Shown here: positions 41 through 58,270 of the stretch, piece by piece
Numbering within the stretch: the first letter of the stretch is position 1
Layout of the letters: each line of letters starts with the position of its first letter
Assembly: GCA_964438405.1 (NCBI GenBank)
Contig: CAYTKF010000003.1
Span: 1-58,270 of the forward strand
DNA: 58,270 nucleotides
From: an uncultured Candidatus Saccharibacteria bacterium
GTDB lineage: Bacteria > Patescibacteriota > Minisyncoccia > UBA9983
Direction of reading: 5' to 3'
Position numbers and translations under genes: made by a program
The notes under the pieces: generated by a model
What the model saw: the letters and a program-made list of their open reading frames with translations, nothing else
The model's database searches: none
Told to the model about the DNA's origin: nothing

Positions 41-127
41 CGGTGAGGGTGGGATTTGAACCCACGGACCCCTTTCAGGGTCGGCACGTTAGCACCGTGC
101 TGCACTAGACCACTATGCGACCTCACC
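41..127 (-). tRNA. tRNA-Ser(GCT)
   Basis: Reverse complement folds as a cloverleaf: acceptor GGTGAGG/CCTCACC, anticodon stem GCACG/CGTGC with loop GTGCTAA, long variable arm, TTCAAAT T-loop; no encoded CCA. Confidence 0.93.
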
Positions 128-151
128 AATTTTTTTAATATTTTACCACGT

Positions 152-763
152 CTATCCCCGCGCCACAACCAGGCCAATGACATTTTTGGCGCCCGCGTTT
201 TTTAAAATTTTTTTCGCCTCAGCCATTGTTGCGCCGGTTGTGGAAACGTCATCTATAAGAATTATATTTTTGTTGATTATCAATTCCGCGTTTTTTACGC
301 CAAAACTGCCCTTGATATTTTGCAGGCGTTTTCTTCTGTCTTTTAACGCCACCTGTGAGGGAGTTTCTTTCATTTTATAAAGGACATTGGTTATCACGTT
401 GTCCGATATATGTTTTGCGATTAATTCTGTCTGATTAAAACAGCGTTCCTTCATCCGTTTTGCAGAGAGGGGAATGGGAATAAAAGCAGTTTCTTTGTCT
501 TTAATTTTTTCCAGCAGCCTTATTTTTATTAATTCTGCCAACGGCTCAGCCGTCTCTCTTATACCCCTATATTTTAAAAGCCAAATTGCCTTTTTAACCA
601 AAATATCATTGTAATCGCTTGCGGCAAAAACGTTGTTTAACTCCAAAAATGTCGGTTTGTCTATTTTGTCAATGCACTTTCGGCACAAGATATCATTCTT
701 ATTGCCACAGCCTATGCACTTTTGCGGGAAAAAGAAACCCATGATACTTCTTAACAGTTCCAT
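152..763 (-). CDS. comF: ComF family competence protein (phosphoribosyltransferase-like)
   Basis: N-terminal CxxC...CxxC, RxFNQ motif (RCFNQ) and C-terminal IILIDDVSTTGAT PRTase motif. Confidence 0.92.
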   Translation of the reverse strand: MELLRSIMGFFFPQKCIGCGNKNDILCRKCIDKIDKPTFLELNNVFAASDYNDILVKKAIWLLKYRGIRETAEPLAELIKIRLLEKIKDKETAFIPIPLSAKRMKERCFNQTELIAKHISDNVITNVLYKMKETPSQVALKDRRKRLQNIKGSFGVKNAELIINKNIILIDDVSTTGATMAEAKKILKNAGAKNVIGLVVARG

Positions 764-782
764 AATTTTTATAATATAATTA

Positions 783-791
783 TGTTATAAT
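783..791 (+). promoter_or_regulatory. Extended -10 promoter (TGnTATAAT) for the pilM operon, probably leaderless
   Basis: TG-T-TATAAT at 783-791, 7 nt before the ATG at 799. Confidence 0.6.
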
Positions 792-798
792 AATAACA

Positions 799-1884
799 AT
801 GGATGTCACACTTTTTAAAAAAATCAGTTCGTTCTTTAAAAAAGAGAACCGTGTTTTGGGTATTGATATTGGCACCTCTTCTATAAAAATTGTCCAGCTA
901 ATAAAAGAGAAAGAAAGAGCAGTGCTTGAAACATACGGTGAGCTTGCAACCGGCCCCTATGCCAAGTTAGGGGTTGGACATGCGGTAAAACTTCAGGAGG
1001 ATGTTTTGGCCTCAGCCATAAAAGATCTTTTAAAAGAGGCGAATATAACAGCAAAAAAGGCAGTTGTTTCAATTCCGTTAAGTTCTTGTTTTGTGACAAC
1101 CATCAATCTTCCCTTCAACTCAGAATCAGGACTCGAAGAAATTATCCAGCTTGAGGCAAGGCGCTATATCCCGGTGCCGATATCTGAGGTGGTTCTTGAT
1201 TGGTGGGTGCTTCCCCAGGAAACAGCTAAGAATGAACAGCAAAAGAAAAGCGTAATACAAGTTTTGCTTGTCGCCATTCATAAAGACGTTATTGACAGTT
1301 ATAAAAAAATAATTTCCGAATCCGGTCTTGAGGCCGTGGCTTACGAAATAGAATCATTCAGCGCCATTCGTTCTTCTTTGGGCAGAGAAAATACAGCAAC
1401 GGCTCTTTTGGATTTTGGCGCCCTTACAACCAAGTTATCCATTGTTGACTATGGTGTTATGAAATCGTCTTATTCAATAAATCATGGCTCTCAGGAGCTG
1501 ACAACCGCCATTTCCCAATCTCTTGGTATTGATTTCTCCAGGGCCGAGGAAATGAAAAGAGAAATAGGCCTTTCCGACCTTCCTGAACACAGGGACGTGA
1601 ATGCAATTTTTGAGCCGGTTCTTAATTATATTTTTTCTGAGGTCAATAGATTTATAAAAGACTACCAAAATAAGAATAATCGCTCCGTGGGCAAGGTGGT
1701 CATGGCTGGAGGAGGTTCTTCACTTATGGGGTTGATTGATTTTTCCATTAAAAGTTTTACGATAGAAGTAGTACTCGCAGACCCGTTTATCAAGGTTGAT
1801 TATCCAGTTATTCTTTCCGAAGTCTTAAAAAAGGTCGGCGTAAATTTTTCTGTTGCCCTGGGATTGGCTCTTAGGAATTTATAA
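799..1884 (+). CDS. pilM: Type IV pilus assembly protein PilM
   Basis: Actin-like ATPase motif VLGIDIGTSSIKIVQL, IQLEARRYIPVP, LLDFGA and C-terminal AGGGS; first gene of the pil operon. Confidence 0.93.
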   Translation: MDVTLFKKISSFFKKENRVLGIDIGTSSIKIVQLIKEKERAVLETYGELATGPYAKLGVGHAVKLQEDVLASAIKDLLKEANITAKKAVVSIPLSSCFVTTINLPFNSESGLEEIIQLEARRYIPVPISEVVLDWWVLPQETAKNEQQKKSVIQVLLVAIHKDVIDSYKKIISESGLEAVAYEIESFSAIRSSLGRENTATALLDFGALTTKLSIVDYGVMKSSYSINHGSQELTTAISQSLGIDFSRAEEMKREIGLSDLPEHRDVNAIFEPVLNYIFSEVNRFIKDYQNKNNRSVGKVVMAGGGSSLMGLIDFSIKSFTIEVVLADPFIKVDYPVILSEVLKKVGVNFSVALGLALRNL

Positions 1885-1891
1885 ATTAAAT

Positions 1892-2461
1892 ATGCCTGAA
1901 AAAAATTTATCATTTATTCCCAAGAAGAATTTTAATCCGATAGTGTATAAAAATGCCGGAGCGGGCCTGTTTTTGTCTGCTTCATTTTTTTTGCTGATTT
2001 TATCCGGAGTATTATATGGAGGTTTATATTTTTATAAATATTCCATAAATAAAGAAATTTTCACCCTTAACGATTCTTTGAATAAAGTAAAATCCGCCTT
2101 TGAACTTTCAACCATAGATCGTATTGTCGCGGTTTCCAGTGAAATAGATACGGCAAAAAATATTTTAGGTCAGCACAAAACAGCCATTCCGGTCTTTGAT
2201 TTTTTACAGAAAGATACTGTTAAGGATTTGAGGTTTAAAATTTTCAGACTAAGTTTCGATGAAGACGGCGCCGCAACTGTTTCTATAGACGGAACTGCCA
2301 AAAGTTTTTTAGCCATCGCTGTCCAGGAAGATGTTTTTAAGAACGAAAGCACTGTCAGTAATGTTCTTTTTTCTGATTTTAAACTTGGAGACAAAGGAAC
2401 GGTTGATTTCAAAACCAATCTTATGTTTTATCCGTCAACTTTTGTTTATAAAAGTGAGTGA
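1892..2461 (+). CDS. PilN-like pilus alignment protein
   Basis: Single N-terminal TM helix then coiled-coil/periplasmic domain, located between pilM and pilO. Start moved to MPEKN (1892) to avoid overlap with pilM. Confidence 0.7.
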   Translation: MPEKNLSFIPKKNFNPIVYKNAGAGLFLSASFFLLILSGVLYGGLYFYKYSINKEIFTLNDSLNKVKSAFELSTIDRIVAVSSEIDTAKNILGQHKTAIPVFDFLQKDTVKDLRFKIFRLSFDEDGAATVSIDGTAKSFLAIAVQEDVFKNESTVSNVLFSDFKLGDKGTVDFKTNLMFYPSTFVYKSE

Positions 2462-3180
2462 TCTTTATGTTTAAGAACATACTTTCAATAATATTACTTG
2501 GAACAGCAGCTGCAGTTTTTTTTGTTTTTTCCAAACCCCTTTATCAAGAAATCCAGGATTTACGAGTGCATAGAGAGTCTTTAAACGATACTCTTTCCCA
2601 ATCAAAAAAAATTCAGGCAAAGAGAGATGAAATTTTGTCGCAATACAACAATATTTCCAATGATAATCTGGATCGTCTTAAAAAAATGCTTCCGAACAGT
2701 CCGGATTCAATAAAATTTATTTTGGGGCTTGATAATATTTCAAGAAAAAATGGCATTATCCTAAAAGATATAAATGTTAATAGTAGCGCAGTGCCATCTT
2801 CAGGTGGGCAGAAGATAGACGTTATTTCCATGCCGATTTCCATGAAGGTGAGCGCTTCATACGTTTCTTTTTATAATTTTCTAAAAGATATTGAAAACAA
2901 TTTACGTCTGACAGAAATAAAAGAAATTAATTTTACGGCCGGAGATGCTGATTTTTACGAATTTAATATTAGTGGATTAATTCGTTATAAAGAAAATTAT
3001 TCTATCGCTCCTACGGAACAAATATCTCAGACCCAAGAAATTATAATGATTCTTAATACTCTCAACAATATAAATCTTGATGTTACATTTTTTGATAACC
3101 CGGTTTTTAAGAATCTGAACGATTTTTCGGTTGAGTTGCCAATAATGGAAAAAGGGAAAATAAATCCATTTTCTCAATAA
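2458..3180 (+). CDS. pilO: PilO-like pilus alignment protein
   Basis: N-terminal TM, coiled coil, KMLP motif and SYxxFxxFLxxIExxxRL motif typical of PilO; start may be 2467. Confidence 0.75.
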   Translation: MIFMFKNILSIILLGTAAAVFFVFSKPLYQEIQDLRVHRESLNDTLSQSKKIQAKRDEILSQYNNISNDNLDRLKKMLPNSPDSIKFILGLDNISRKNGIILKDINVNSSAVPSSGGQKIDVISMPISMKVSASYVSFYNFLKDIENNLRLTEIKEINFTAGDADFYEFNISGLIRYKENYSIAPTEQISQTQEIIMILNTLNNINLDVTFFDNPVFKNLNDFSVELPIMEKGKINPFSQ

Positions 3181-3181
3181 C

Positions 3182-4888
3182 ATGCAGTTTTCTGACGTAT
3201 TAATCAAAAAGAAAATTATAGACGCGCGAAAACTCGCGAAACTCACCACGAGGTCAAAGGAGGAAAATTTGTCTCTGGAAAAACTTCTTTTGGATGAAGG
3301 TATTTCAGAAAAAGAAATTTTGGATGCCAAGGGAGAGGCCGGAGAAATTTTAACGCGGACCATTGTTAAAGATCAGATCTCCTTTGAAGTTTTAAAACAA
3401 ATTCCAGAAGAAGCCGCCAGGCATTATAAATTTGTTCCCCTTGAAATTAAAGACGGGGTTTTGGAAGTGGGAATGGTGAATCCAGAAAATGTAGAGGCAA
3501 GAGAGGCTTTACAATTTATTGTCTCAAAATTAAATATTCCATTCAGAATTTATTTGATTACCGATAAAGATTTGGAAATAGTGCTTGACTCTTATAAGGG
3601 CATTCGCGGAGAGGTGGGCAAGGTTTTGAATGAACTGGAATCAGCCCTGGCAGAAACCATACGCGAGGAATCTGTTGAAGATTTTTTAAAAACAGAGATT
3701 AAATTTATAGAAGATGCGCCAATTACCAAAATGGTTGCAGTGATATTAAAACACGCTATATCCGGCAATGCCTCTGATATTCATATCGAACCGACTTCCG
3801 AAAAAACAAAAGTGCGTTTTAGGGTTGATGGTATTTTATATACAAGCATAATGCTTCCTATCAGCGTTCATGATGCCATTGTCTCCAGAATAAAAATTTT
3901 AACCAACCTGAAAATTGATGAAAAACGTAAGCCTCAAGACGGCAGATTCGAAACAAAATTAGAAAATAGAAATATAGATTTTCGCGTTTCCACCTTCCCA
4001 ACTTTTTGGGGAGAAAAGGTTGTCATTCGTATTCTGGATAAAGTAAAAGGGGTTAGGAGTTTAAAAGAAATCGGTTTTTCCGAAGACCAGCTTGTGATTA
4101 CGAAAGAGGCGATAAAAAGACCTTACGGCATGATATTAATTACCGGTCCCACCGGTTCCGGCAAAACCACCACTCTTTATGCTATGCTCCAGGAACTGGA
4201 TAAAGAAAAATATAATGTTGTAAGTTTGGAGGATCCCATTGAATACAATATAGAGGGAGTAAGTCAGTCCCAAGTTCTTCCAGAAATAGGTTATGATTTT
4301 GCAAATGGTCTGCGTTCAATTTTACGTCAGGACCCGGACATGATAATGGTTGGTGAGATTCGCGACAAAGAAACTGCCGCTCTGGCCATACAGGCGGCCT
4401 TAACAGGACATCTTGTTTTTGCAACACTGCACACTAACAATGCTTCTGGCGTAATACCAAGGTTAGTGGATATGGGCGTTGACCCGTTTTTAATTGCCCC
4501 AACCATTCTTTTGGCCATAGGTCAAAGACTTGCCAGGACGCTTTGTCCTGATTCAAAAAAAGAAATACCCTTACTGGGAGCCGCAAGGGAAAAAATTGAA
4601 AAAGAGATAGCTGATATTCCGGAAAACATAAGAAAAAATATTAAAACTCCGGATAGAATATACCAGGGTGTGCCTTCGGCCACATGCCCTAAGGGGGCAA
4701 GGGGAAGAATAGGTATTTTTGAGATTTTGAGGAAATCTCCGGAACTGGAAAATATAATTTTAAATAAACCTATAGATGTCGAGATAATGAAAGAGGCCCG
4801 GCGCCAGGGCATGTATACAATGAGAGAGCAGGGCCTGATGAAATTATTTGAGGGGATAATTAGCTTTGAGGAATTTAATAAGTTATAA
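3182..4888 (+). CDS. pilB: Type IV pilus extension ATPase PilB (GspE/PulE family)
   Basis: ASDIHIEP, PQDGR, Walker A GPTGSGKTTT, EDPIEY, LRQDPD, VGEIRD, ALTGHLV. Confidence 0.96.
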   Translation: MQFSDVLIKKKIIDARKLAKLTTRSKEENLSLEKLLLDEGISEKEILDAKGEAGEILTRTIVKDQISFEVLKQIPEEAARHYKFVPLEIKDGVLEVGMVNPENVEAREALQFIVSKLNIPFRIYLITDKDLEIVLDSYKGIRGEVGKVLNELESALAETIREESVEDFLKTEIKFIEDAPITKMVAVILKHAISGNASDIHIEPTSEKTKVRFRVDGILYTSIMLPISVHDAIVSRIKILTNLKIDEKRKPQDGRFETKLENRNIDFRVSTFPTFWGEKVVIRILDKVKGVRSLKEIGFSEDQLVITKEAIKRPYGMILITGPTGSGKTTTLYAMLQELDKEKYNVVSLEDPIEYNIEGVSQSQVLPEIGYDFANGLRSILRQDPDMIMVGEIRDKETAALAIQAALTGHLVFATLHTNNASGVIPRLVDMGVDPFLIAPTILLAIGQRLARTLCPDSKKEIPLLGAAREKIEKEIADIPENIRKNIKTPDRIYQGVPSATCPKGARGRIGIFEILRKSPELENIILNKPIDVEIMKEARRQGMYTMREQGLMKLFEGIISFEEFNKL

Positions 4889-4899
4889 TTAATAAAAAT

Positions 4900-5280
4900 A
4901 TGAACGGAGAAAATAGTAAAAAAGTGTTGATTATTGATGATGATGAATTTTTGCTTGATATGTATTCAACAAAGTTTAAAGAGAGCGGTATAGGTGTTGA
5001 AATTTCTCTCAGCGCCCAAGAGGCCCTTGAAAAAATTAGAGCCGGCCTTAATCCGTCAGTAGTCCTTTTGGATATTATTATGCAGGGAATGGACGGTTTC
5101 GGTTTTTTAGAAACAGTTAAAAAGGAAAGTTTATTAAAAGACAGTAAAATAATAATTCTTTCCAATTTGGGGCAGAAAGGGGATATAGAAAAAGGGTTGG
5201 CTCTCGGTGCCTACAGTTATCTGGTAAAGGCATATTATACGCCGTCTGAAATTGTTAAAAAGGCAAAAGAATTATTATGA
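4900..5280 (+). CDS. Single-domain response regulator (receiver)
   Basis: VLIIDDD, phospho-Asp in LLDIIM, DGFGFL, conserved K in YLVKA; no output domain. Confidence 0.92.
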   Translation: MNGENSKKVLIIDDDEFLLDMYSTKFKESGIGVEISLSAQEALEKIRAGLNPSVVLLDIIMQGMDGFGFLETVKKESLLKDSKIIILSNLGQKGDIEKGLALGAYSYLVKAYYTPSEIVKKAKELL

Positions 5281-9666: not shown

Positions 9667-10404
9667 ATGGTAGTTAGTTTTTTTGTTTTTATTTTCGGAA
9701 CGATAGTTGGTAGTTTTTTGAATGTCGTTATTTTGCGTTACAATAGCGGTGAATCAATTATTAAAAATAGTTCTAAATGTTTTAGTTGTAGAGAAAGATT
9801 GAAATGGTATGAAATGATTCCGGTTTTAAGTTTTATATTCCAAAGGGGCAGATGCCGGCATTGCAAAAGTAAAATTTCATGGCAGTACCCGATTGTTGAA
9901 TTACTTACTGGTTTAGTTTTTTTATTAATATTTTTAAAATTCCAATTTACGCTCGTTACGAGTTACTACTTTGTAGTTTTCAGTATCTTAATAATTATTT
10001 CTGTTTATGATTTGCGCCACCAGATTATTCCCAATTTATTAGTTTATATTTTCGATATTTTGGCATTTTTAAATTTATTACTAATTACGAATTACGAATT
10101 ACGAATTACGAATTTTTTGGCTGGTTTATGTTTCTTCGCGTTTTTTGCTTTAATCTGGCTTTTGAGTAAGGGCAGGGCAATGGGCTTTGGTGATGCCAAA
10201 TTGGCATTGGGCATAGGCTGGTTTTTGGGTTTAAACAAGGGTATTTTTGCTCTCTTGTTGTCTTTTTGGCTTGGTGCCATTGTGGGTATTTTCCTTTTAA
10301 TTTTCTTTAATAAAAAGTATAATATAAAAAGTAGCATCCCCTTCGGTCCTTTTTTGGCCATGGGAGCTGCGGTTGCATTTTTATGGACAAAAAACTTTTT
10401 TTAA
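9667..10404 (+). CDS. pilD: Prepilin peptidase (A24) PilD
   Basis: GSFLNVVILR, CFSC/CRHC Zn sites, YDLRHQIIP and MGFGDAKL aspartyl motifs, IPFGPFLA. Confidence 0.95.
   Translation: MVVSFFVFIFGTIVGSFLNVVILRYNSGESIIKNSSKCFSCRERLKWYEMIPVLSFIFQRGRCRHCKSKISWQYPIVELLTGLVFLLIFLKFQFTLVTSYYFVVFSILIIISVYDLRHQIIPNLLVYIFDILAFLNLLLITNYELRITNFLAGLCFFAFFALIWLLSKGRAMGFGDAKLALGIGWFLGLNKGIFALLLSFWLGAIVGIFLLIFFNKKYNIKSSIPFGPFLAMGAAVAFLWTKNFF
10083..10114. repeat. Heptamer tandem repeat (AATTACG)x4.6 inside pilD
   Basis: AATTACG AATTACG AATTACG AATTACG AATT, encoding ITNYELRITN. Confidence 0.9.
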
Positions 10405-16078: not shown

Positions 16079-17491
16079 ATGGCTGTAATAAATTTGGGGG
16101 AATTAAATATAAAAAAGGCCAGGGAATTGATTGATAAAAAAGAAATTTCCTGCAGGGAACTGCTCGCGCTTTATCAAAAAAATATCAAAGACAAAAATGA
16201 AAATGTTAACGCATTTCTGGAAGTTTTTGATGATGCAGATGAATTTGCAGAAAGGACTGACAAGGAAATTTTATCAGGCAAAGAATTCAAAGAGCTTGCT
16301 GGTATTCCCATTGCCATTAAAGACAACATTTTAATAAAAGAAAAAATTTGCTCGGCTGGCTCAAAAATTTTGGAAAATTATCACGCAACATACGATGCAA
16401 CTGTCATAAAAAAACTTCGCGATGCAGGAGCAATTTTTATAGGCAGAACAAACATGGACGAATTTGCAATGGGTTGTTCCACTGAGAATTCTAGCTACGG
16501 CCCCACAAAAAATCCCTATGATTTGGAGCGAGTTCCTGGCGGTTCCTCTGGCGGTTCAGCAACGGCAGTTGCAATACAGGGCGCAATTGCTTCTCTTGGT
16601 TCTGATACGGGCGGTTCCATACGCCAGCCAGCAAGTTTCTGCGGAGTTGTGGGATTGAAACCGACTTACGGAACTGTTTCGCGCTATGGTCTCATTGCCA
16701 TGGCTTCGTCTTTTGACCAGATAGGGCCGATTACAAAAAGTGTTGAGGACGCGGAAATAATTTTTAATATTATACGCGGAAAAGATAAAATGGATTCAAC
16801 ATCTGTAGAAAGTCGTCAGTCATCAGTCGTCAGTCGTCAGCTTAAAATCGGTCTTTTAAAATACGATAGAAATGGCGTTGATAAAGAAATTAACGACGCC
16901 ATTGATTCTTCGGTAAAGATCTTAAGAAGACTGGGCTACGAAGTTGCAGAAATTGACATGCCCAATCTTGAGTACGCCCTTGCATGTTATTATATTCTTG
17001 TTCCCGCAGAAATTTCCGCAAACCTGGCTCGTTTTGACGGCGTCCGATACGGGCTTTCTATTAAGGGGGAAAATTTAATGGAAGATTATTTAAAGACAAG
17101 GGCTGAAGGTTTTGGCAAAGAGGTCAAAAGAAGAATAATGCTTGGCACCTATGTTCTTTCTGCCGGATATTACGATCAATATTACGCCAAGGCTCAGAAA
17201 GTCAGGGTTTTAATAAAAAAAGATTTTGAGCGTGCATTTAAAAATTTTGATTTAATCTTGTCGCCGGTTTCTCCGACTCTGCCGTTTAAAATAGGGGAGA
17301 AAGTTGATGACCCACTTAAAATGTATCTGTCAGATATTTTTACCGTTTCCGTAAACCTGGCAGGTTTGCCGGCAATATCAATTCCTTTCTCAAAAAATAT
17401 CGGCGTTCAATTCATTGCGCCGTGGTTTAGAGAAGATGTATTATTTAACATAGGCAAGCAATATGAACAATATAGCGGCGCAAGCGCCTGA
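16079..17491 (+). CDS. gatA: Asp/Glu-tRNA amidotransferase subunit A
   Basis: IAIKDN, RTNMDEFAMG, PGGSSGGSA, GSDTGGSIRQPA amidase signature, RRIMLGTY. Confidence 0.96.
   Translation: MAVINLGELNIKKARELIDKKEISCRELLALYQKNIKDKNENVNAFLEVFDDADEFAERTDKEILSGKEFKELAGIPIAIKDNILIKEKICSAGSKILENYHATYDATVIKKLRDAGAIFIGRTNMDEFAMGCSTENSSYGPTKNPYDLERVPGGSSGGSATAVAIQGAIASLGSDTGGSIRQPASFCGVVGLKPTYGTVSRYGLIAMASSFDQIGPITKSVEDAEIIFNIIRGKDKMDSTSVESRQSSVVSRQLKIGLLKYDRNGVDKEINDAIDSSVKILRRLGYEVAEIDMPNLEYALACYYILVPAEISANLARFDGVRYGLSIKGENLMEDYLKTRAEGFGKEVKRRIMLGTYVLSAGYYDQYYAKAQKVRVLIKKDFERAFKNFDLILSPVSPTLPFKIGEKVDDPLKMYLSDIFTVSVNLAGLPAISIPFSKNIGVQFIAPWFREDVLFNIGKQYEQYSGASA
16811..16840. repeat. Heptamer tandem repeat (AGTCGTC)x4.3 inside gatA
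   Basis: AGTCGTC AGTCATC AGTCGTC AGTCGTC AG, encoding SRQSSVVSRQ. Confidence 0.85.
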
Positions 17492-56540: not shown

Positions 56541-56566
56541 GTAATTAGACAATTAAATAAGTGGTT

Positions 56567-56667
56567 TTATCAAGAGAGGCACGAGGGTTCTGGCCCGATG
56601 ACTGCCCGACAACCTGCCAATAAGTCCTTTGGCAAGGTGCCAAATCCAGCCCGCAAGGGAAAGATAA
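56567..56667 (+). ncRNA. SAM-I (S-box) riboswitch
   Basis: TTATCAAGAGAGG..GAGGG..TGGCCCGATGA..CCCG.CAACC...GGTGCCAAATCC...AAAGATAA matches the SAM-I consensus, with P1 TTATC/GATAA. Confidence 0.9.
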
Positions 56668-56757
56668 TTTGGCGATTTTTGTTTGCCAAGAATTAAAGAA
56701 CTCTTTCCCAGCGGAAGAGCTCTTTTACAATTGAAGAAAGTAGAAAGGAGAAAAGAA

Positions 56758-57336
56758 ATGAGCGAAAACTGGAAAGACATTCTTGAAGCAGTTCAAGGTT
56801 TTAAAGACAACAGAAAGGACCATTTTCCTCAGGCGGATAAAATGGTTGAATTTTTTAACCAAGTGTCTACGGAGAATTTAGTGGTTCATCTTGAGGAAAT
56901 TTTCCAACTTTTCAAGCAGTGGCCGTATAATCAACATGATGACGAGGCTCAGAACGCAATACAAATTGCCATGAGCAGATTGATTTGTCATTTGACACCG
57001 GACCGTCAGTTTGTATTAGTTAAGTTGGGGTTAAGGCATTTGGCTGAGGAGTTGGATTTTTCAGAATCCGACCTGAACGAAAGCGGAGTGCCGATTCCCA
57101 AATGGCTTCACCTGTGGAATATTTTTGCCACTTACAAATCATTGTTTAAGAATTATGTCCAAGTGAGACAATTGCGCTCTTTAGCAAAAAAACTCTGCGC
57201 AACGCACCCGTTTTTTAAAAACTACTATTTTATCTTTGACCAGTTGATTCTTGTTCCAGAAAGAATGAGGATGTCTCGACTGGAAAGAATCAAGTGGTTT
57301 CGTGAAATTAAGAAACCCAAATGGCTCATTTCTTGA
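56758..57336 (+). CDS. Hypothetical helical protein under the SAM riboswitch
   Basis: AAGGAG SD before ATG 56758; no family recognised. Confidence 0.7.
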   Translation: MSENWKDILEAVQGFKDNRKDHFPQADKMVEFFNQVSTENLVVHLEEIFQLFKQWPYNQHDDEAQNAIQIAMSRLICHLTPDRQFVLVKLGLRHLAEELDFSESDLNESGVPIPKWLHLWNIFATYKSLFKNYVQVRQLRSLAKKLCATHPFFKNYYFIFDQLILVPERMRMSRLERIKWFREIKKPKWLIS

Positions 57337-57440: not shown

Positions 57441-57764
57441 TGGAATTACAGTATGAGTAACATTATAAAAACCCAATATTTGAAGCGGAAAATCTAGCTG
57501 TCTTTTTTTGCGATGTGTCAGAATGTCCGCTTCTAAAAGGCGGATTTTTTAATCAGAATGAATAGAACTTTAACAATTTAGCAGGTAAAAAAGTAGAATA
57601 AGTATATAAATTTCCTAATAGGAAATTAAGGGCGTATGGTGGATGCCTAGACATCAAAGGGCGATGAAGGACGTGGCGTGGCTGCGATAATCTTCGGGGA
57701 GCTGCCAAGCGAGCTTTGATCCGGAGGTTTCCGAATGGGGCAACCCATCGTGATTTAATCACGA

Positions 57765-57848
57765 TACGCAGATTTGCGCAGATTTCTACGCAGATTCTCG
57801 CGGATTTTATCCGCGTTTATCCGCGCAGGCATCTGCGTTTATCTGCGA
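57765..57848 (+). repeat. Repeat-built intervening sequence in 23S (helix 10 region)
   Basis: Four CGCRGAT units followed by four inverted ATCYGCG units. Confidence 0.8.
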
Positions 57849-58102
57849 GTGAACCCGCTGAAGTGAAACATCTCAGTAAGCGGTGGAAAAGAGAATAAAA
57901 ATTTATTCCCCCAGTAGCGGCGAGTGAAAAGGGAAGAGCCCAAACCCCGATACTTTAGTATCGCGGGGGTTGTAAGATAATAACATCTATTTAATTAGGA
58001 GAGTCTATAAAATAAAACTTCGTTAGTTGAATCTTGCTGGAAAGCAGAGCCAGAGAGGGTAATAGCCCTGTAAGCGAAAACGGTTTTATGCTCTCAGTTA
58101 TT

Positions 58103-58139
58103 TGCGCCTCAACGGCGCATCTGCCGACGAGGCAGAATT
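58103..58139 (+). repeat. REP-derived insertion in 23S rRNA
   Basis: TGCGCCTCAACGGCGCA plus TCTGCCGACGAGGCAGA; matches the element at 40489-40544; flanked by ATT on both sides. Confidence 0.8.
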
Positions 58140-58215
58140 CTTGAGTACTTCGAAACATGATTGGTTCGGAGGAATCCGGGAGAACTAACTCCCAAGGCTA
58201 AATACCTTTGATGAT

Positions 58216-58252
<37 letters not shown>

Positions 58253-58270
58253 CAGCCCGGTGAGGGCGAT

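Follow-up and report, generated by a model that had tools for sequence, protein, structure and literature searches.

A repeat-armed hairpin at helix 10 of a groundwater bacterial 23S rRNA gene: a probable intervening-sequence-like copy from a dispersed family

Introduction

Why should a 23S rRNA gene carry, in the place of its helix 10, a hairpin with arms that are each built of four copies of one heptamer? Since 1990 it has been unclear how bacterial rRNA intervening sequences (IVSs) originate and what purpose they serve, and the rRNA genes of the CPR are full of insertions, the shorter of which, to our knowledge, have not been dissected so far. IVSs lacking an ORF are known in 23S rRNA at helices 25 and 45 in Salmonella, Yersinia, and Campylobacter, and at helix 9 in Alphaproteobacteria. 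Insertions of at least 100 nt have been counted in 77% of CPR 23S genes, with most of those tested being absent from transcripts (Brown et al. 2015, as cited in PMC9297842). Full-text literature searches gave us no account of a family of repeat-armed hairpins in rRNA genes, or of short repeat-unit hairpins there, which is not proof of absence. Here, we dissect one such hairpin, trace its relatives, and weigh the explanations for its presence.

Results

Four direct and four inverted heptamers take up helix 10

The window (the whole 58,270-nt stretch of DNA analyzed here) ends within a 23S rRNA gene, the 5' part of which (57616..58270, + strand) matches positions 1-539 of the Rfam bacterial LSU model (343 bits, E 3.8e-109) and which is carried on to model position 1597 by locus L051 of the same organism. 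A helix 9 hairpin of normal size (57747..57765, +; ATCGTGATT T AATCACGAT) is directly followed on its 3' side by a repeat-armed hairpin of 81 nt (57767-57847, +) that takes up all of helix 10, which thereby has 67 nt as against 13 in the Rfam consensus; the outermost pair of repeat units aligns with the native 7-bp stem of this helix. The 5' arm (57767..57805, +) comprises three CGCAGAT units and one CGCGGAT, which start at 57767, 57777, 57789, and 57799, and are separated by the spacers TTG, TTCTA, and TCT, amounting to a 2+2 arrangement (by TRF, period 22 in 2.0 copies and period 10 in 3.9 copies). The apical loop is TTT (57806..57808, +), and the 3' arm (57809..57847, +) comprises two ATCCGCG units and then two ATCTGCG units, starting at 57809, 57819, 57831, and 57841, with the spacers TTT, CAGGC, and TTT; in consensus form, four CGCRGAT units are followed by four of ATCYGCG. 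An earlier note made from the DNA letters alone had described four direct and four inverted units forming a long hairpin where helix 10 is expected, and this description was borne out when the units were read off the sequence, folded, and placed with Rfam, as was its reading of the stretch as an insertion relative to the bacterial consensus. The span of 57765-57848 that it gave narrows, by the unit starts, to 57767-57847, which lies inside it. The stretch is also ORF-less, as the note had it, since the loop has 3 nt and the sole ORF across the hairpin is a spurious 60-aa frame.

With units spaced by 10-12 nt and spacers of 3-5 nt (TRF periods of 10 and 22), the arms depart from contiguous heptanucleotide tandem repeats of the STRR/TAACTGA type. 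Furthermore, because the spacers are T-rich or non-complementary in both arms, these are complementary in their units only and do not constitute a simple DNA palindrome. Across both strands of the window there are 19 matches to CGCRGAT, eight of them inside the 81-nt stretch, with the other 11 equaling the expectation from shuffled sequence (10.0 +/- 3.0). Together with helix 9 and the flanks, the hairpin folds into a single predicted structure of -56.3 kcal/mol (z = -7.1, 0/200 shuffles as stable; -45.6 kcal/mol for the hairpin alone), namely a chain of 7-8-bp helices and internal loops with 31 predicted pairs in the hairpin, a longest uninterrupted helix of 8 bp, and a basal quasi-continuous helix of 15-17 positions. 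A one-unit shift of register carries a penalty of 10-16 kcal/mol, and the native register is present in all 210 suboptimal folds within 6 kcal/mol. These register energies disfavor, at the RNA level, the previous suggestion that the hairpin is slip-capable, and no copy-number variants were seen among the three assemblies compared.

An assembly or sequencing artefact created by the repeats themselves deserves mention, as the Logan contigs of all three source runs (groundwater metagenomes) break across 57760-57849. These breaks are explained by the conserved rRNA words on both sides and a depth of about 5x. Moreover, independent MEGAHIT-type assemblies of three samples (L050, L051, and L052) agree letter for letter over the 160 nt around the hairpin, and we reject an artefact as having next to no probability.

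The hairpin is absent from the other 23S genes compared

A conserved native helix shared by related taxa, the condition that the earlier note had itself set against its reading, is ruled out by the comparison with about 160 other 23S 5' regions (44 genome loci and 120 metagenome loci), none of which has a CGCRGAT hairpin at helix 10. The named genomes were selected by a shared 29-mer upstream of helix 9, which is common to many phyla and yielded no close relative in the genome scan, and the metagenome loci by a shared 32-mer in helix 11. The nearest 23S sequences in this comparison are only 76-88% identical in their conserved parts, none of them at the genus level, and the best named matches are from Kaiserbacteria and Moranbacteria, which makes the organism a probable member of the CPR/Patescibacteria. 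AACCC and GAANTGAAACATCT lie 44-61 nt apart in 38/39 named genomes versus 113 nt here, with the 39th, from Moranbacteria, showing a helix-9 expansion. Similarly, helices 9 and 10 jointly measure 37-56 nt in 47 of the 55 measurable loci among the 120 from metagenomes versus 105 nt here. Thus, the hairpin has the sporadic distribution that is typical of IVSs, being absent from the other taxa compared, none of them a genus-level relative, rather than that of an expansion segment shared by a clade.

Helix 10 nevertheless varies among these loci. In the distantly related L161 it consists of 7 bp and a triloop between the same A...AGTG flanks, whereas in eight metagenome loci it is a long hairpin itself built of other short repeats, e.g., a 2+2 hairpin of TACGAAA in L213 and ATAAAGTT in L141, L214, and L220, with repeat-built extensions of 30 to 190 nt that often sit on a shared G+C-rich base. 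A conservative detector of repeat-armed hairpins (paired tandem arrays of reverse-complementary units with a period of 6-12, at least 2.5 copies, and a gap of up to 90 nt) recovered 36 such hairpins, spread over 20 loci, while locally shuffled sequence yielded none.

Relatives of the hairpin in other 23S genes and in phages

The window hairpin aligns over its full length with positions 1255-1342 of L214, in the 23S gene of another organism (identity 62/81; score 73, shuffle maximum 21), which has the same 4+4 units and 2+2 spacing, and with scores of 55-60 with elements at L141:3776 and L214:2807 and in L102. We accordingly define a CGCRGAT family of repeat-armed hairpins, characterized by 3-4 direct CGCNGAT units and 3-4 inverted ones with a period of 10-11, a 2+2 arrangement, and alignability over the full length, all of which hold for the window hairpin. 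Copies, each of four direct and four inverted units in this 2+2 spacing, lie inside 23S genes at L214:1255, L214:2574, L214:2807 (gene span 63-4496), L141:3776 (the same organism as L214), and L102:11869, and just outside the 23S gene at L214:5287. In the L141 and L214 copies, the central base of most units forms a purine-purine mismatch (CGCRGAT versus ATCAGCG).

The 23S gene of L214 (63-4496) is itself 4434 nt long, about 1.5 kb of which is insertions. In both L141 and L214 the 23S locus bears hairpins of ATAAAGTT-type repeats in the 5' leader, in helix 10, and further downstream (1762-1863, 2105-2198, and 2332-2427 in L141), in addition to at least four CGCRGAT-type hairpins, and many of these are flanked by small tetraloop hairpins. 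Three groundwater DNA contigs (X5, X8, and X10) match 37-50 nt of the window hairpin with flanks unlike conserved 23S. We dropped them as candidate non-rRNA copies, as they are flanked by tetraloop mini-hairpins like those by the 23S insertions of L214 and may lie in rRNA genes.

A scan of viral contigs with ATCYGCGTTTATCYGCG returned 49 loci, about 29 of them distinct, including about 20 matches with at least three units (further period-10 units or hairpins). Two control scans with scrambled units returned 5 and 11 loci, in which no unit was followed by another in tandem and there was one lone inverted copy of a chance-like kind. The phage hairpins with 3+3 to 4+4 CGCNGAT units sit between structural genes (portal, protease, major tail, and adaptor). 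Genomes that differ widely in G+C content have the same motif, and no Rfam family matched the repeat hairpins of the viral loci.

Phage contigs also show other arrangements of such repeats. In L034 (959-979 and 1291-1311) and L017 (2512-2538), three direct CGCAGAT(A/G)AA units without an inverted partner lie 11-14 nt upstream of successive start codons, resembling in this respect the TAACTGA repeats upstream of start codons in Beggiatoaceae. Further phage contigs have many repeat-armed hairpins each (L002 at 4402-4483 and 5079-5154; L004/L039 at several sites; L007), with units of their own (AGTTGCG, CGCAGAGGA, CACGGAGG, and ACGTTTC), variants of which are sometimes mirrored in the other arm. 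The resemblance of TTATCCGCG to a DnaA box we regard as coincidental.

Sister hairpins in the same 23S gene

Two further hairpins, both with TACGAAT/ATTCGTA units, are found in the continuation of the gene on L051. The first of these (L051 2863-2925, 176 nt past the window end), on the 3' side of AGCGAAAGCG, accounts for 72 nt where the model has 3, and we take it to be in helix 31 (E. coli numbering; PMC2441807, Table 2). The second (L051 3444-3505, 757 nt past the window end) lies between AGTACCGAAG and GGTAGGAGAG, i.e., at the helix-45 IVS site, and is ORF-less. As they are 59/72 (82%) identical without gaps (score 94 versus a shuffle maximum of 33), the two are copies of a single element, one at each site.

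The same heptamer recurs in the window as about five tandem TACGAAT/ATTACGA units (10077..10114, +) that are translated in frame (...ITNYELRITNF...) within a 245-aa ORF (9667-10404), which by eye looks like a prepilin peptidase. A second coding heptamer array, AGTCGTC in 4.3 copies (30 nt; 16811-16840), is likewise in frame (...ESRQSSVVSRQ...) in a 470-aa ORF (16079-17491) that looks like the amidotransferase subunit GatA, with the array in an apparent variable linker.

Heptamer stems of S23p intervening sequences

Deltaproteobacterial 23S genes with an S23p (PF05635) ORF at helix 45 have about 4.6 heptamers on each side of it, that is, 4-5 direct and 4-5 inverted ones (e.g., GTCAGAA, GACAGAG, TACAGAG, and GACAGAC on one side, and TTCTGTC, TTCTGTC, CTCTGTC, and TTCTGAT on the other), which are contiguous, with a 7-nt spacing, and pair as perfect helices of 14-19 bp. 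Such 4-5 + 4-5 stems were noted in L057, L064, L077, and L238-L250, and the plan is the same in all ten S23p loci added to those that the genome scan had brought in, with unit variants that differ between samples; the 4+4 units of the window hairpin correspond to this plan, but with spacers of 3-5 nt. In Coxiella, the IVS has 2-3 tandem GACAGAT heptamers, the number of which varies among strains, RNase III cleaves where the first of them begins, and the S23p ORF is decaying (PMC4990558). Taken together, the S23p stems and the Coxiella cuts indicate that four direct and four inverted heptamers are the building plan of known RNase III-excised IVS stems. The earlier idea of a repeat-flanked element gains substance from this plan, from the tandem GACAGAT of Coxiella, and from the ORF-less helix-45 hairpin of the same gene.

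Among the loci examined, S23p itself has a restricted distribution: in an HMM search of the 9501 ORFs of all loci it was detected only in seven deltaproteobacterial loci (L057, L064, L071, L074, L077, L091, and L096), and neither HMM nor regex searches found an S23p ORF in the window or in any CPR-like or viral locus examined, nor did an alignment search of viral contigs give a match. The best 120 S23p homologues are, without exception, proteins of helix-45 IVSs. Five loci from different samples (L238, L240, L242, L243, and L245) encode the same S23p protein, with identical flanks as printed (about 120 nt on each side). That these loci differ only in the heptamer variants of the 3' array (TTCTGAC, TTCTGTC, and TTCTGGC) implies that the arrays evolve faster than their surroundings.

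Predicted fate of the RNA

By analogy with IVSs, and given its basal quasi-continuous helix of 15-17 positions, excision of the hairpin from pre-23S rRNA by RNase III is plausible and may be its likeliest fate. Its retention as a protruding expansion segment is also a real prospect: the duplex is interrupted (longest perfect helix of 8 bp versus 14-19 bp in S23p IVS stems), and the L141 and L214 copies contain purine-purine mismatches, such that these hairpins may be poor substrates for RNase III. The words of the hairpin were in no public run searched. The reads of eleven RNA runs covered only conserved rRNA words from other organisms, and in the RNA runs from the study of the L141 organism its specific regions were uncovered. 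CGCRGAT-like hairpins were present in 3/4 other groundwater DNA runs versus 0/4 groundwater RNA runs, a weak hint of little weight as the sites differ. A motif search for an RNase III gene found none in the window, which is uninformative for a stretch of 58 kb.

Discussion

Comparison with known systems

Like the ORF-less 23S IVSs, the window hairpin is an extended and stable stem-loop of extra sequence that replaces the tip of a surface helix, is sporadic, and contains no ORF. It lies at helix 10 rather than at the usual helix 9, 25, or 45, and the list of IVS sites in PMC4990558 does not include helix 10; this helix does, however, adjoin helix 9, and a sister hairpin occupies the helix-45 site of the same gene. 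Two differences are that its arms consist of spaced repeats with internal loops and that its excision is putative. With the S23p IVSs of Coxiella, Leptospira, and deltaproteobacteria, it shares a stem of about 4-5 + 4-5 heptamers and the core of the unit (GACAGAT or GTCAGAA versus CGCAGAT), and the variation of the S23p arrays between strains and samples may be counted as a further likeness. In contrast, the S23p elements sit at helix 45 and have an ORF for the S23p protein (PF05635) and contiguous heptamers in perfect helices of 14-19 bp, where the window hairpin, at helix 10, has a 3-nt loop and 3-5-nt spacers.

Expansion segments, such as eukaryotic ES4L at helix 10 and H54a of Mycobacterium, resemble it in being extra rRNA at a solvent-side, insertion-tolerant site (an attribution that for the window hairpin comes from Rfam placement at helix 10 and analogy with E. 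coli) and in the nested growth of helix 10 in related lineages. However, they are retained and conserved in clades, whereas the window hairpin is private to its lineage. Heptanucleotide tandem repeats, known in several phyla (PMC4679880), e.g., the cyanobacterial STRR and the TAACTGA repeats of Beggiatoaceae, likewise have a 7-nt unit in 2-6 copies at many loci with a scattered phylogeny, but their units follow one another without gaps in a single orientation, mostly ahead of start codons, and do not form paired inverted arrays in rRNA genes. REP/BIME elements and MITEs are similarly short, dispersed, hairpin-forming, and non-coding; in the present case, though, the arms are internally repetitive, and we saw neither a RAYT or transposase nor any terminal inverted repeats or target duplications. 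Finally, with the rRNA insertions of CPR/Patescibacteria the hairpin shares its setting, a groundwater organism with a CPR-like 23S, although the published work (PMC9297842) deals with long insertions and introns.

The preferred reading and its rivals

We consider the hairpin to be an IVS-like insertion without an ORF, one of a dispersed family of repeat-armed hairpins, at a surface helix that tolerates insertions, a reading to which we assign a probability of roughly 0.6. Under this model, one copy of the CGCRGAT family, with four units per arm in a 2+2 arrangement around a larger central spacer, would occupy the tip, and effectively the whole, of helix 10 on the solvent side of the 23S rRNA, at a place that accepts insertions. 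It would be transcribed within the pre-23S rRNA and would fold into a rod about 39 positions long, made up of 7-8-bp helices and U-rich internal loops, which a double-strand-specific RNase (RNase III) would remove during maturation. The putative outcome is a 5' fragment of about 150 nt that would stay base-paired into the subunit, as with the helix-9 IVSs of Alphaproteobacteria. While the anatomy, position, absence elsewhere, relatives, and sister hairpins are read directly from the sequences, we infer transcription, processing, and the way in which the family spreads. The E. coli 23S rRNA accepts insertions at H9, H10, H29/H31, and H45, and that at H10 (I3) allows normal growth (PMC2441807, Table 2). 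As to mobility, neither a target-site duplication nor a transposase was found, the 58 kb of the window hold no second CGCRGAT array, and the roughly 60 kb of the genome covered include two copies and one coding array of the TACGAAT element.

Instead of arriving as a copy, the hairpin might have grown in place if slippage during replication, or duplication, multiplied the native 7-bp stem in both arms to a unit, doublet, and quadruplet, the product being retained as an expansion segment. Such an origin is in keeping with the alignment of the outermost unit pair with the native stem, the minimal helix 10 of L161 within the same flanks, the 22-nt duplication that makes up the 5' arm, the hypervariability of helix 10 in related lineages with their nested extensions, and the other heptamer tandem arrays of the genome; the tolerance of helix 10 to insertion in E. 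coli and its coincidence with eukaryotic ES4L (PMC2441807), as well as an interrupted duplex that may escape RNase III, would fit with retention. On account of the native stem and L161, growth in place is possible for the window copy as such, but it does not explain the relatives elsewhere: the unit, the unit number, and the 2+2 spacing recur in phage DNA and at unrelated 23S sites of other organisms, and the same gene has, at two different helices, hairpins that are 82% identical copies; independent local slippage predicts neither observation. We therefore regard it as an unlikely, if serious, alternative to a dispersed copy.

The view put forward in the earlier note, of a decayed remnant of an ORF-bearing IVS that has lost the part coding for its four-helix-bundle (S23p) protein, draws on the shared plan of 4-5 direct and 4-5 inverted heptamers, the decay of the S23p ORF in Coxiella (PMC4990558), and the xxCAGAT core common to GACAGAT and CGCAGAT. 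It is improbable in view of a 3-nt loop without a trace of coding sequence, the confinement of S23p to the seven deltaproteobacterial loci with none in the CPR-like or viral loci examined, units at 10-12 nt with spacers of 3-5 nt as opposed to contiguous arrays at 7 nt, and a location at helix 10 rather than helix 45. An element acting at the DNA level, i.e., an array of binding sites for a sequence-specific protein akin to joined transposon ends (MITE-like), with the RNA hairpin as a by-product, could account for the maintenance of CGCNGAT in both orientations even where the central base is unpaired (the L141 and L214 copies), for a spacing of 10-11 bp that would place the sites on one face of B-DNA, for single-orientation arrays upstream of phage genes (L017 and L034) and inside coding sequences, and for a motif unchanged across genomes of very different G+C content. 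Yet in both arms it is the rRNA strand that has U-rich spacers, a property both strand-specific and RNA-like, the location of copies at the tips of rRNA helices points to selection at the RNA level, and neither a transposase nor a target duplication was seen, nor any terminal repeats besides the units; a DNA-level element is hence very improbable.

Implications

These observations imply that at least some CPR insertions are not random expansions but copies of a few recognizable repeat-armed modules, which recur at the insertion-tolerant helices H10, H31, and H45 in different organisms and in phage DNA, and have a plan in common with the stems of S23p IVSs. This offers a handle on the origin and movement of the insertions, on the fragmentation of CPR 23S rRNA, and on the role of heptamer arrays and S23p/Avd-like proteins. 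On a practical note, the modules break short-read rRNA assemblies and inflate the apparent length of 23S rRNA. Going well beyond this, we offer the rather doubtful speculation that repeat-armed hairpins might be an unrecognized class of miniature non-autonomous elements with about 4-5 tandem heptamer-core units per arm (the CGCRGAT, TACGAAW, and GWCAGAR families), which would spread sequence-specifically among rRNA helix tips, rRNA leaders, phage intergenic regions, and coding sequences. Their cognate partners might be S23p/Avd-like pentameric four-helix-bundle proteins with one subunit per repeat. If true, this would explain both the constant unit number of about 4-5 and the 35-year-old puzzle of IVS origin.

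Other features of the locus

The 23S gene begins about 280 nt downstream of a gene for a 192-aa protein that is preceded by a SAM riboswitch (S box, 61.7 bits), both within 56564-57336. No Pfam match is on record for this protein, and its homologues number only three, all of them distant (38-41% identical) and on contigs with no adjacent 23S gene. As there is no 16S gene upstream in the window, the rRNA genes appear to be unlinked. Two ORFs overlapping the 23S gene and the hairpin (57553-57762, -, and 57716-57898, +; 69 and 60 aa) are almost certainly spurious and at risk of being miscalled as genes. A 22-nt insertion relative to the Rfam LSU model (57999-58020) lies in the next domain I helix, and a second insertion in domain I has 61 nt where the model has 19 (58108-58168). 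The latter includes a mini-hairpin, ATCTGCCGACGAGGCAGAA (58119-58137), which over its 19 nt is identical to the entire helix 10 in another organism (L207), as though small hairpin modules turned up repeatedly at different sites in rRNA.
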